Positions 17,646-20,973 of a stretch of DNA of 64,000 nucleotides are shown in pieces (position 1 is the first letter of the stretch; every line of letters starts with the position of its first letter). The stretch is from Escherichia phage Mizar. The stretch lies in the sequence record PV714129.1; one strand, written 5' to 3'. Position numbers and translations under genes: made by a program. Under the pieces are notes generated by a model. The model was given only the letters and a program-made list of their open reading frames with translations, did not search any database and was not told where the DNA came from.

Positions 17646-17950
17646 TATAATGTTCTCTCAAATTTGTGGAAGCATTTACGGCATTTCAATTTCAAGTTAT
17701 CAGTGGTCCAGTTAACCAGTTGGACTTGGATAGTTCCACATTCCGGACACGGATGTTTTGCTGCCGATTTGGCAGCATTTTCACGTCGTTCAACCATTTT
17801 CATTATTTCGTTCCATGCCGGAGGAACGAACTCTTCTTCACCGTGGATTTTATCTCGCTGAACAAATTCAATCTTTGAACTATCGTCAATAAACTTAACC
17901 AAGCCATGATTAGTGCTCATATCAATATCCTCTAAAAGACGTAGTTTCAT
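17645..17950 (-). CDS. Zinc-ribbon protein
   Basis: CPECG ... CRKC cysteine pairs; 101 aa. Confidence 0.45.
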   Translation of the reverse strand: MKLRLLEDIDMSTNHGLVKFIDDSSKIEFVQRDKIHGEEEFVPPAWNEIMKMVERRENAAKSAAKHPCPECGTIQVQLVNWTTDNLKLKCRKCFHKFERTL

Positions 17951-18900
17951 TATAACACCTCAATGGCATTTCGTAAACCGTCCGCTTTCGCATTCAGAGC
18001 TTTTAACGATTTAGTCTGTTCTTTAATCTGGGCTTCGACTTCTTTCAGACGAGATTTGAGATATTCACGTTCTTCGCTCAAGTTGTCAACTTTTTCTACT
18101 TTAGGTTCTTTAATAGTCTTAAGTTTATACTCGTTAGGGTTCTTCAGCTTAATTCGGGTGCGAGAACTGTATAACATTGAACCGTTATCTTCGGATTCGT
18201 CGAACGTTTCAACAACATCCATAGTCTCTAACAATGTAATAAGTTTATAAGACAATGAACGAACGGTTTTGTTATGCTTATTAATTTCTTCAGCTTTCAT
18301 GGTACCGAGATTACGTGAGTAGTAATAAGGAACCTGGATATCAATTGACAATGATGCGTTACCATTACCGGTCGATTTGAATACTGCAGTAACCCAATCT
18401 TTAACATGAACTTTATTTGTACGACCATCACCGCCCGTGAATAATTTACGAGAATGTTTAAAAAGCATATTCACTTGGTTATTGAATTCACAAGCAAATT
18501 TATCAGCGAATTTAGTTTCAGGAATGGTAGATAACCAATCAGCCAAATGAGTCTTTTTAACATCATTAACAATAGTGAATTCAACCAAATCGGTTTTAGA
18601 TGTCACAGATTTAATAAAGCTCGGTTTCATAAAGTTTTTAATGTTATCGCGAGCTACAGTAGAAGATAATAAACGAGAACGTTTGAACCATTGAAGCAGC
18701 GTCCCTAGTGAATGAGAATATGCATTCTGAGTATCTTTACAGATATGATTTTCTTGGCCTGTGTATGTACCAAAATCGCGAAGAATACCACTTACTACAT
18801 CTCGGTGTGGAACATCAAATCCTAGTGCACCAACAGCGCGCCGGGCATGAACGTTAGCGATAAGACCGGCAAAGTATTCAATGTAATGTGAACGTGTCAT
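17950..18900 (-). CDS. Hypothetical 316-aa protein with C-terminal coiled coil
   Basis: Long ORF; C-terminal 60 aa heptad-like and charged; own promoter cassette upstream. Confidence 0.55.
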   Translation of the reverse strand: MTRSHYIEYFAGLIANVHARRAVGALGFDVPHRDVVSGILRDFGTYTGQENHICKDTQNAYSHSLGTLLQWFKRSRLLSSTVARDNIKNFMKPSFIKSVTSKTDLVEFTIVNDVKKTHLADWLSTIPETKFADKFACEFNNQVNMLFKHSRKLFTGGDGRTNKVHVKDWVTAVFKSTGNGNASLSIDIQVPYYYSRNLGTMKAEEINKHNKTVRSLSYKLITLLETMDVVETFDESEDNGSMLYSSRTRIKLKNPNEYKLKTIKEPKVEKVDNLSEEREYLKSRLKEVEAQIKEQTKSLKALNAKADGLRNAIEVL

Positions 18901-18928
18901 AATATTTTCCTCTAGTTAAGATAGATTC

Positions 18929-18958
18929 ATTATACTCCAACCATCCTTGGTTGTAAAC
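18929..18958 (-). promoter_or_regulatory. Early promoter cassette (-35 GTTTAC, 18-nt spacer, -10 TATAAT) with stem-loop in the spacer
   Basis: Minus strand GTTTACAACCAAGGATGGTTGGAGTATAAT; 27 nt identical to the cassette at 19949-19975. Confidence 0.6.
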
Positions 18959-18962
18959 TATT

Positions 18963-19922
18963 TTATGATTTTAATGCATTCATTGCGTTAAAAAGTTTAG
19001 AGTACTGCAACTGGAGATTCGTTACAACACTTTGAGCATCACGAAGCTTAGCTTGTGCTTTGTCAAGTTCAACAGACAGTTGGTCCATAGTGGCCTTGAT
19101 TTGATTGTAATGGTAATCTTCGACCGGAAGAAGGTCATTAGAAACATTTAGTTTTACTGCAGACAGTTTGCACACATTTGGCAAACCTTTAAACATTGAT
19201 TTACCCGAAGTAGAATATGAACCTAGAACTTCAGCATTACCAATTGGGGTTGCAGTAATTGACGCTTCAAATGTTGCATTTTCCTTTTTAAGATTTTGAT
19301 AGTATTCAGAGTCTTTGTGCCACCACGGCGCAGGAACCTTTTTACCAATAGATACACGAGCCTGGATAGCGATATGGCCCTTATTCTTGATAGGGTCGAT
19401 AATATTAAGCTCACGAGAATAAATTGCTTTAATCTGGTGGATATTATCACCTAAAACTTCCAACGCTTGGTGGAATACACGAGCAACGTTATCATTCTTA
19501 GGTTTATACGTAAGAGTGAACTCGTTCTCACTGATAACCATGATTTCTAACTTATCGTAAGTATATTTCAAATGTTTCATGTTAATTGCTTGAGGACGAA
19601 TACGAGAAGCAATGGCCATCAGATTATTAAGGTTATTCCGGAACTGCTTAGCGAAATATTGACCTTCACCGCCAATACAAAAATTACGAAGTTTCTGTTT
19701 GGCCAATAAACGGCTGAACTCACCATTTTTAATGAACTCTTTAACGGGTGTGTTAGTAACGCATTCAAATTGGGTAAACATACGAGAAGTAATCCCATAA
19801 TATGAACAGATTTCCTCAATCTCTTCAGGAGTCTTTACAGGCATACGGATAGGATTAGGTCCTGGAGTATATGCGTTCGAGGTAAATTCTTTGATAAGTT
19901 CTCTACGTGTAATAAAAGCCAT
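18963..19922 (-). CDS. Hypothetical 319-aa protein with C-terminal coiled coil
   Basis: Long ORF with GAGGAA SD; helical C-terminus. Confidence 0.55.
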   Translation of the reverse strand: MAFITRRELIKEFTSNAYTPGPNPIRMPVKTPEEIEEICSYYGITSRMFTQFECVTNTPVKEFIKNGEFSRLLAKQKLRNFCIGGEGQYFAKQFRNNLNNLMAIASRIRPQAINMKHLKYTYDKLEIMVISENEFTLTYKPKNDNVARVFHQALEVLGDNIHQIKAIYSRELNIIDPIKNKGHIAIQARVSIGKKVPAPWWHKDSEYYQNLKKENATFEASITATPIGNAEVLGSYSTSGKSMFKGLPNVCKLSAVKLNVSNDLLPVEDYHYNQIKATMDQLSVELDKAQAKLRDAQSVVTNLQLQYSKLFNAMNALKS

Positions 19923-19948
19923 TTTATATTCCTCATGTTGAAAAATTT

Positions 19949-19978
19949 ATTATACTCCAACCATCCTTGGTTGTACAT
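19949..19978 (-). promoter_or_regulatory. Early promoter cassette (duplicate of 18929-18958)
   Basis: Minus strand ATGTACAACCAAGGATGGTTGGAGTATAAT. Confidence 0.6.
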
Positions 19979-20973
19979 CATTCCTTAAGAAGTTTTACTA
20001 CCTGAATAAGATTAGCTCGTTCTGTTTTATTTTTACCATTTAAGCCTGCTAATCGTGAGATTTCATCGTCAGTCTGTTGAATAGTTACATTAAGTTCATT
20101 AATCAAAGCTTCAAAGTATTTGATTTGCTCAGCATGTTTTGATTCAAATTTCTGAACCGGAATAACGTCTTGGTTTAGTTCGTCAATAAGGTCTTTAAGA
20201 GCATCTTCTTGGTTGATATCATATTCAACTTCTTTTATTTCTTCAACGAGCTCGTCTTTATATCTAACGTCTTTTAGTCCTGGTGCTGGTCCTGAAATCT
20301 CTTCTTTAAGAGTACAAACATACCCAATACGGTATCCAATGCCGTCTCGCTTGATATCAACTTCGTCGATAAATCCACAATGTTTAAGACCAGAGCCGAT
20401 TATGTCAAAATATCCTTGACGTCGTCCTTCAAACGTTACACGAACTACTAAGACAGTTTTGCCACCAACCTTTTGAAGCTCACATTTATAAAAGTCTGTT
20501 GAACCTGAATAACATGGATGAGTTTTAAAGTTCATCTGACGATCTAGGCCCATTTGTAAACGTGCTGTTACGGCCATAAAACGTGTTTGGTTCTCGTTAA
20601 GATGAGCAACAATCCATTTCAAAGGCATTTTACCCTGTTCACGACCGAACAAATCAGTACGTCCTAGATTACGCAGGATGTTGTTAGAGTTAATCATCGA
20701 CAGAACGTTAAGTTTATTCAGCGCGCTGAAGATTCCATCAGCCATTGATTTTCCATAACCTTTACACGCTTTAATAAGTGCTCGTGGCAGATTAGTATAG
20801 ATTTCAGATGGCATATGAAAATCAAATTTACTAGTCAGTAATTGATGAACTTGGATAGCAATTTGCTCATAATTAAGTGCTCTGCGATCGTTATGGTCTT
20901 TAAACCACACTTTAATCTGTGAAGCACATAAACCGTTAATTTCATGTTTTACCGCATCAGATGTAATGCTCAT
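19978..20973 (-). CDS. Hypothetical 331-aa protein with acidic coiled-coil C-terminus
   Basis: Long ORF; third member of the tandem ~320-aa series. Confidence 0.55.
   Translation of the reverse strand: MSITSDAVKHEINGLCASQIKVWFKDHNDRRALNYEQIAIQVHQLLTSKFDFHMPSEIYTNLPRALIKACKGYGKSMADGIFSALNKLNVLSMINSNNILRNLGRTDLFGREQGKMPLKWIVAHLNENQTRFMAVTARLQMGLDRQMNFKTHPCYSGSTDFYKCELQKVGGKTVLVVRVTFEGRRQGYFDIIGSGLKHCGFIDEVDIKRDGIGYRIGYVCTLKEEISGPAPGLKDVRYKDELVEEIKEVEYDINQEDALKDLIDELNQDVIPVQKFESKHAEQIKYFEALINELNVTIQQTDDEISRLAGLNGKNKTERANLIQVVKLLKE

Follow-up and report, generated by a model that had tools for sequence, protein, structure and literature searches.

The window analysed here, a 64,000-nucleotide (nt) stretch of Escherichia phage Mizar (PV714129.1), carries on its minus strand three consecutive open reading frames (ORFs) of 316, 319 and 331 amino acids (aa), at 17950-18900, 18963-19922 and 19978-20973, exactly as they had been read in the first-pass annotation, and each ORF has a short intergenic cassette upstream. 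Megablast of the region placed the source of the window within Mosigvirus (RB69/ATK47-like T4-type phages), with phage OLB35 as the top match (98.8%), ahead of ATK47, SHSML-52-1 and some 150 more. The accessory region extending from nrdC to mobD was identified by comparison with annotated relatives and with T4, and on this basis the locus is assigned to the nrdC.3-nrdC.8 segment of the Mosigvirus hyperplastic (accessory-gene) region.

The 316-aa ORF is the orthologue of nrdC.3 (phrog_1435, E=8e-102), with 58% identity to T4 NrdC.3. The 319-aa ORF occupies the syntenic place between nrdC.6 and nrdC.3/4 and is the orthologue of nrdC.5, the module that varies among Mosigviruses. It matches phrog_2351 and, over its full length, the Pfam family DUF7235 (2e-121; 405.5 bits with a cut-off of 30, residues 15-318), to which T4 NrdC.5 is assigned as well (420.6 bits, 5e-126); identity between the two proteins is 26% (E=2e-12). 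Orthology to nrdC.6 (phrog_2257, 3e-127) was found for the 331-aa ORF, whose product is 32% identical to PST NrdC.6 across the full length. The conserved upstream neighbour is a 175-aa nrdC.8 orthologue (21036-21563, minus strand). Identity between Mosigvirus and T4-type proteins descends from about 84% in nrdC.8 to 55-58% in nrdC.3, about 33% in nrdC.6 and 26% in nrdC.5, and the three nrdC genes of the array diverge much faster than nrdC.8. The label "thioredoxin", given to nearly all nrdC.x genes in GenBank, was rejected as propagated from the neighbouring nrdC and lacking sequence support, as was an ATK47 annotation within nrdC.6, "possible binding site of StbAB", which likewise has no sequence support.

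Pairwise BLASTP among the 316-, 319- and 331-aa proteins returned no significant similarity, in agreement with the mutual dissimilarity first judged by eye. AlphaFold2 (AF2) predicts single long C-terminal helices at residues 275-315 of the 316-aa protein (window 17953-18078, minus strand) and 267-318 of the 319-aa protein (window 18966-19124, minus strand), and no other C-terminal stretch was modelled with confidence. Heptad scores, a crude home-made measure of a/d periodicity, peak in all three tails (0.88, 0.95 and 0.72, respectively) and in the T4, Dhakavirus and Gaprivervirus homologues. The heptad-like charged tails that had been described for all three proteins are thus borne out for the 316- and 319-aa proteins, whose predicted tails, each one unbroken helix with heptad a/d periodicity, exceed the roughly 28 residues taken here as the minimum for a coiled coil; the tail of the 331-aa protein (about residues 272-331, window 19981-20160, minus strand) shows the periodicity but is broken by the G/N-rich stretch AGLNGKNK. 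Each protein is predicted to begin with a helical region, to be mixed in its middle and to close with an amphipathic helix some 45-50 aa long, and this tail may serve as a coiled-coil oligomerisation handle. The nrdC.8 protein likewise has a helical, heptad-like C-terminal tail.

By tblastn, the families were confined to Tevenvirinae coliphage genera (160-745 of 50,697 phage records). The profile of the 319-aa family, queried against 1.84 billion representatives, recovered only two proteins/clusters, with no distant relatives and no bridge to other nrdC families. Foldseek gave no match in PDB, and against BFVD, with a low-confidence model as query, its matches were proteins about 300-370 aa long of other T4-like phages, with low template-modelling scores, a suggestive result at most. 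HMM searches of PDB sequences and NCBIfam produced nothing meaningful.

The cassettes are named here after the genes they separate: 5/3 (18901-18962), 6/5 (19923-19977) and 8/6 (20974-21035), all on the minus strand. The 27 identical nucleotides reported for two of them were recovered as an exact 27-mer, TACAACCAAGGATGGTTGGAGTATAAT, present in exactly two copies in the window (18929-18955 in 5/3 and 19949-19975 in 6/5, minus strand) and in 0 of 100 shuffled sequences, even with up to 3 mismatches allowed. The copies are spaced 1020 nt apart, the repeat around the core reaches 43 nt at 86% identity, and the core is the longest perfect repeat of the Mosigvirus array. Both copies lie in sigma-70-like promoter sequences, TTTACA-N17-TATAAT in 5/3 (-35 at 18957-18952, -10 at 18934-18929; 11 of 12 consensus positions) and TGTACA-N17-TATAAT in 6/5 (-35 at 19977-19972, abutting the stop codon of the 331-aa gene, -10 at 19954-19949; 10 of 12 positions), and both match the published T4/PST consensus TTTACW-N17-TAYWAT. 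AT-rich leaders (AAAATCATAAAATAG and AAAACTTCTTAAGGAATGA) are found upstream in the cassettes, and the 3' ends bear the Shine-Dalgarno sequence (SD) and start codon of the downstream ORF (AGAGGAAAATATTATG, TGAGGAATATAAAATG and TGAGGAAATAGTTATG), the SD being AGAGGA in 5/3, followed by ATG, and GAGGAA in 6/5 and 8/6. A MotA box or middle promoter in the cassettes was rejected, as TGCTT is absent.

Within the promoter spacer, both nrdC.5-flanking cassettes hold the same 6-bp hairpin, CAACCA-AGGA-TGGTTG (18953-18938 and 19973-19958), which overlaps the last two bases of the -35 and ends 3 nt before the -10, with a GGAG next to the hairpin. The statement that each of the three genes stands behind a near-identical cassette holds for the 316- and 319-aa genes but not for the 331-aa gene, whose cassette 8/6 has in common with the other two only the hairpin core CCAAGGAYGG and TATAAT. 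This cassette contains CTTTAC, the hairpin ACCC-AAGGAC-GGGT (21028-21015) and a -10 TATAAT (21014-21009), with non-standard -35/-10 spacing and no properly spaced -35; cassettes orthologous to it follow nrdC.8 in T4, Dhakavirus and Gaprivervirus. In total, four CCAAGGAYGG hairpin cassettes were located in the window, three in the array and one at 40499-40527. Each gene is equipped with a putative regulatory cassette of its own, composed of a sigma-70 early-promoter sequence, a small hairpin and an SD.

In every genus examined, one version of the hairpin follows nrdC.8 and another follows nrdC.5. The nine distinct versions had 95.6% of cells paired and 13 double-sided changes, with 0 of 500 shuffles as high, in a set for which a stem of at least 4 bp was required, a requirement that inflates pairing. 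The third stem pair from the loop varies among A-U, C-G, U-A, G-C and G.U, and the AAGGAY loop is conserved. No Rfam family matches the hairpin, and a U-tract is absent from it, so that it is not a classic terminator. An IMG/VR scan for CCAAGGATGG-N(0-8)-TATAAT gave mostly isolated matches on unrelated contigs, the pattern being too short for specificity. A mini-ORF starting from the ATG in AAGGATGG was rejected, since the AAGGAC variants lack that ATG.

Gene content of the segment differs between genera. The order in Tequatrovirus is nrdC.8, nrdC.7, nrdC.6, nrdC.5, nrdC.4, nrdC.3; in Mosigvirus it is nrdC.8, nrdC.6, nrdC.5, nrdC.3, with nrdC.4 absent and the nrdC.7 homologue moved next to nrdC; and in the four Dhakavirus and Gaprivervirus loci read it is nrdC.8, nrdC.6, a small ORF, nrdC.5, nrdC.4, with nrdC.3 missing. 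The three genes are orthologues of T4 nrdC.3, nrdC.5 and nrdC.6, but they do not constitute a fixed, conserved T4 gene set, as the set varies. Among 153 Mosigvirus records, nrdC.5 was present in 132 and absent in 21, the latter having a contiguous nrdC.5-less arrangement according to a junction query.

Three nrdC.5-less junctions (ESCO47, p000v and WFL6982) were read, and in all three the breakpoint was inside the cassette. The sole cassette of p000v and WFL6982 is a clean hybrid, with the left flank of 6/5, the core and the right flank of 5/3, which is the product expected from recombination between direct repeats. In ESCO47 the blastn blocks overlap on the 27-nt core (6481-6507, equal to window 19975-19949 and 18955-18929), and the junction cassette itself is divergent. 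The reciprocal hybrid was identified in moha upstream of nrdC.5, where the last 22 nt of nrdC.5 and the left flank of 5/3 precede the core and the right flank of 6/5; such a junction is what excision as a circle, or a tandem duplication, would produce.

The ESCO47 junction hairpin, CAACC-AAGGAC-GGATG, joins a 5' arm of Mosigvirus type to a 3' arm of Dhakavirus type, which gives an A.A mismatch, and the leader downstream of the junction and the start of nrdC.3 look T4-like, which suggests an exchange between genera with a crossover near the loop. Moha has in addition an extra 66-aa ORF (4707-4907 of its locus), hydrophobic and membrane-like by reading. Small ORFs of 62-71 aa between nrdC.6 and nrdC.5, found in moha (4707-4907), Bp7 (5693-5881) and VR26 (7022-7237) and none in the window, represent a further indel adjoining a cassette.

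These observations fit a mechanism in which the two nrdC.5-flanking cassettes, observed as direct repeats with an identical core, would recombine homologously and so excise or re-insert the nrdC.5 module, leaving one hybrid cassette; unequal crossover at paralogous gene starts would have the same outcome for nrdC.4 in T4-like phages. The comparative evidence points to this mechanism, which agrees with the mini-circle model published for promoter-early stem-loop (PeSL) elements. The modular array with cassette-supported swapping of cargo, proposed in the first-pass annotation, gains support from the absence of nrdC.5 in 21 of 153 records, from the breakpoints inside cassettes and from the reciprocal hybrid of moha. 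We regard it as probable that the locus as a whole is a Mosigvirus accessory segment in which PeSL-type cassettes mediate exchange of the nrdC.5 module and the cargo acts in host range or anti-defence.

PeSL elements were described in RB49/phi1, where mini-circles were detected experimentally (Arbiol et al. 2010, PMC2839356), and were extended to PST/T4 and nt-1/KVP40 by Comeau et al. (2014, PMC4122927), who marked PeSLs in full or degraded form between about 43 and 51 kb of PST (figure legend), i.e. in the present nrdC region. The phenomenon is in this respect already known, with the PeSL mechanism mapped in the T4/PST region. The cassettes of the window are like PeSLs in uniting an AT-rich leader, a sigma-70-like early promoter, a stem-loop, an SD and an ATG in one element, in being repeated between small accessory ORFs of hyperplastic regions, and in that recombination of neighbouring copies would delete or insert the ORF between them, here judged from comparative evidence alone. 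As with PeSLs, the adjoining gene content differs between Mosigvirus, Tequatrovirus, Dhakavirus and Gaprivervirus and within genera. Unlike the PeSL stem-loop, which is placed just upstream of the promoter (PMC4122927, Fig. 3 legend) and has the published T4/PST stem consensus AGNA-loop-TCNT, the stem-loop of the window is inside the -35/-10 spacer and has a conserved AAGGAY loop with a covarying stem; it would correspond to the "terminator" half of the PeSL, here located within the promoter spacer. The locus further differs from the published PeSL cases in coming from a Mosigvirus and in having population-level counts and reciprocal junctions of both types. This clean natural example and the in-spacer hairpin, with its compensatory stem changes and AAGGAY loop, look new.

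The inflated pairing of the covariation set is one of several points that weigh against this reading. Single stem mismatches occur in the VR26 and ESCO47 hairpins, and the hairpin is weak and of ordinary stability (-6.9 kcal/mol, z from -0.2 to -1.7 relative to shuffles). None of the RNA-folding z-scores of the cassettes reaches significance; it is comparison, not energy, that argues for the hairpin. The promoter-consensus scan was not enriched over shuffles (37 sites and 38.2, respectively), and promoter activity of the cassettes is predicted from sequence. The rearrangements of Manna, ACG-C40 and Pinarejo break inside genes at homologies of 4-21 nt and not in cassettes. The comparison is compatible with loss as well as with gain of nrdC.5, in one event or in several. 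The two AF2 models are poor overall (pLDDT 41 and 53); the C-terminal helix is the best-scored part of the 319-aa model, and in the 316-aa model the N-terminal 85 residues score as well as or above the tail. Finally, the NrdC.5 of the window shares only 26% identity with the T4 protein that was tested against the Dsr1 defence.

The identity of the cassettes could instead reflect selection for regulation only, in which case a strong early promoter and an RNA hairpin acting as a 3'-end, stability or processing signal would be maintained, and recombination would be incidental and of no adaptive meaning. The covariation of the stem, the AAGGAY loop conserved in four genera and the G.U pairs, which suit RNA rather than DNA, all agree with this, as does the retention of the hairpin in three T4 cassettes that are otherwise divergent, and extra conserved positions are known in T4 early promoters (PMC2988021). 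The lack of a U-tract, of an Rfam family and of more than ordinary hairpin stability speaks against it; moreover, it is compatible with the recombination evidence and disputes only the significance of that evidence. We consider such a purely regulatory origin possible, though short of probable. In the preferred reading, too, the G.U pairs favour an RNA-level role on read-through transcripts, where the hairpin most likely acts as a signal for 3' ends or for RNA stability.

In T4, promoters embedded in hairpins gate translation of genes e, soc and 49. The nrdC cassettes are like these in that a promoter is associated with an inverted repeat and that read-through RNA would fold unlike promoter-started RNA. 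They are unlike them in that both arms of the hairpin are upstream of the -10 and the SD is uncovered.

A second alternative assigns the primary role to tandem paralogues, with the cassettes as passengers. Gene and promoter would have been duplicated together; gene content would then vary through unequal crossover at any surviving paralogous homology (5' ends of genes, tails and cassettes) and through microhomology deletions, and the cassette would have no special recombinogenic role. The kinship of the families bears directly on this proposal. NrdC.3 and NrdC.4 both match phrog_1435 with E below 1e-100 and align in hhalign with 97% probability (E=6.6e-11, 205 columns), and on sequence they are clearly paralogues. 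With deeper family alignments built from fetched loci, from which all hhalign values given here derive, shallow alignments having given no clear result, NrdC.3 and NrdC.5 aligned more weakly, across the C-terminal half at E=4e-4, and merged profiles of NrdC.3/4 and NrdC.5/6 at E=4.7e-5 over the motif IKNF...FxxNxxxLxxxSRL; NrdC.4 and NrdC.6 reached E=0.027, and the controls, unrelated neighbour families, 0.08-0.8. An N-terminal TRxx(Y)I motif is common to NrdC.3, NrdC.4 and NrdC.5. The cargo appears to be a small set of old gene families and not a collection of unrelated genes.

The paralogue proposal is further favoured by junctions of T4-like phages. In 27 of 501 Tequatrovirus records nrdC.4 is absent and nrdC.5 is joined directly to nrdC.3. 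In FL12 and Lv5cm, the two nrdC.4-less junctions read, the crossover took place in ACTCGTAA, at the paralogous starts of nrdC.4 and nrdC.3 just downstream of the cassette and outside the hairpin. In Salmonella phage Manna a chimera (4215-5252 of the locus) joins residues 1 to about 269 of NrdC.6 in frame with the last 80 or so of NrdC.4, including the coiled-coil tail, through the 10-nt microhomology TGATGAAATT, and this one gene replaces nrdC.6, nrdC.5 and nrdC.4; the changes in ACG-C40 and Pinarejo are gene-internal deletions. T4 recombines readily at microhomologies of 6-10 bp (PMC9391042), with which the breakpoints of Manna, ACG-C40 and Pinarejo are consistent, and the cassettes are not the sole route of rearrangement. 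However, the nrdC.5 junctions are situated in the cassette core, the longest perfect repeat of the array, and the cassettes are 100% identical over 27 nt when the adjacent proteins have no significant similarity, so that selection or gene conversion acting on the cassette would still be required. On balance, paralogue dynamics with passive cassettes are a rather unlikely explanation of the locus.

A more far-reaching form of the cassette-exchange reading, which we consider improbable, is that the AAGGAY hairpin is a dedicated, structure-specific recombination or processing signal, acting as DNA or on read-through RNA, that bounds coiled-coil-tailed NrdC.3/4/5/6 anti-defence genes and lets T4-type phages swap them between genera at a defined point. 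If true, the array would be an integron-like anti-defence cassette system without an integrase. Like integron cassettes with their attC sites, the array has one gene per cassette, structured repeated boundaries and proposed circular excision intermediates; unlike integrons, no integrase was seen, the cassettes have promoters of their own, and ordinary homologous recombination would explain the junctions, so the likeness is one of analogy only.

The GGAG by the hairpin, together with the A/U-rich -10 (GGAGUAUAAUR), could also constitute a site of the RegB/S1 endoribonuclease on read-through RNA, where a cut would produce an upstream mRNA that the hairpin caps. GGAGUAUAAU resembles the RegB consensus GGAGRAYARAA (PMC1702504), and GGAG is present in the Mosigvirus 5/3 and 6/5, the T4 4/3 and the Dhakavirus and Gaprivervirus 5/4 cassettes. 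Three cassette types, however, lack GGAG (T4 5/4, and 8/7 or 8/6 in all genera), and Manna has GAAG at that position. Furthermore, a T4 survey tested 68 of 71 intergenic GGAG sites and named, of the nrdC genes, only nrdC.8 among the 26 cut efficiently or moderately; the T4 site upstream of nrdC.3 is consequently probably resistant, and the reading of GGAGUAUAAU as a RegB site was disfavoured by this survey and is held to be very unlikely. Least credible of all is that the hairpin is a structure-specific recombination site like attC of integrons, recognised as folded DNA by a phage enzyme in an integron-like array, which is in line with the covarying stem and conserved loop, with the ESCO47 hairpin arms of two genus types, as if from a crossover in the loop, and with the reported PeSL mini-circles, but has against it that no recombinase is annotated among the array-flanking genes of ATK47 or appears in Pfam matches of the window neighbours, that G.U (G.T) pairs are poor in DNA, that ordinary homologous recombination in 27 identical nt accounts for the p000v junction just as well, and that the T4-lineage junctions are outside the hairpin.

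Under the preferred reading of PeSL-type cassette exchange, the function of the cargo is suggested by T4 nrdC.5, which restores infection of E. coli hosts that have Dsr1 (Srikant, Guegler and Laub 2022, PMC9391042). This result is the sole experimental datum for the nrdC.3-6 families, and no later mechanistic work on NrdC.5 and Dsr1 was found in the literature library searched. The 319-aa gene is like T4 nrdC.5 in being early, non-essential, covered by DUF7235 over its full length and lost in some genomes; it is unlike it in its low sequence identity, and anti-Dsr1 activity is known there for the T4 protein only. Because T4 NrdC.5 counters Dsr1, the proteins diverge fast and the genes are polymorphic in presence and absence, the nrdC.3, nrdC.5 and nrdC.6 proteins are most likely host-range or anti-defence effectors.

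The locus offers a clean, countable natural case of gain or loss of a single accessory gene in T4-type phages, with both reciprocal junctions in sequenced genomes, and the variable gene, nrdC.5, is of the same family as the one phage gene known to counter the Dsr1 sirtuin defence. A difference in host range is predicted between nrdC.5-plus and nrdC.5-minus Mosigviruses, and NrdC.3, NrdC.4 and NrdC.6 are nominated as candidate anti-defence proteins. The general picture of T4 genome plasticity is left unchanged by the locus.

A related polymorphism is that of the T-even internal-protein (IP) locus, in which, as far as it is cited in PMC4122927, variable genes between repeated regulatory sequences are linked to host range (Repoila et al. 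1994). The nrdC array resembles this locus in having variable accessory genes bounded by repeated regulatory sequences. The IP gene of the window (45337-45624) has a promoter cassette with TAAGGATG, whose hairpin, unlike those of the nrdC cassettes, brackets the -10 and is not wholly within the spacer; it is another locus with other proteins.

Among the neighbouring genes, a 137-aa membrane protein (17232-17645, minus strand) encoded between nrdC.2 and nrdC is the homologue of T4 NrdC.7 (41% identity, E=5e-27). The position of this gene differs by genus, as it is between nrdC.8 and nrdC.6 in T4 and adjoins nrdC in Mosigvirus. The 345-aa neighbour (22048-23085, minus strand) is the orthologue of nrdC.10 (phrog_1250), with weak P-loop/AAA, STAND-NTPase-like (GAAGIGKT) and weak helix-turn-helix matches, all below Pfam thresholds. 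The reference T4 nrdC.6 (275 aa) carries a frameshift by comparison with PST and further T4-like phages (NC_000866 locus 11997-12140, minus strand), its coiled-coil tail ...DISIQQYDDEIFRLSGLSSKAKSEREKLIKIVDLLKS being intact in another frame; another T4 record, MT984581, matches through the nrdC.6 tail in a single tblastn piece, and the frameshift reflects either an error of sequencing or a true lesion in the reference strain.

The fourth hairpin cassette of the window (40499-40527, minus strand) comprises TGTACA, the hairpin ACGCC-AAGGAT-GGTGT with one G.U pair and a -10 TACTAT, and precedes a 75-aa ORF, the two together lying in 40242-40527. This ORF matches only the last 74 of 391 positions of phrog_1764, which may mean that it is a remnant or else an independent C-terminal domain. 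A second and more frequent type of early-promoter cassette was observed on the minus strand in 10626-46839, with TTTAC-N17-(GA)TACTAT followed by AGACCTATCAA, for example at 10654, 21618, 23084, 29858, 32830, 36125, 44952 and 45687. Inverted repeats bracket the -10 in many of these cassettes. In two of them, at 29858 and 32830, the downstream SD is paired with spacer sequence (CTCCTCTAGTTG/CAACTAGAGGAG and TTCCTCCAAG/CTTGGAGGAA, respectively), and at these two sites read-through RNA would hide the ribosome site, whereas promoter-initiated RNA would not.

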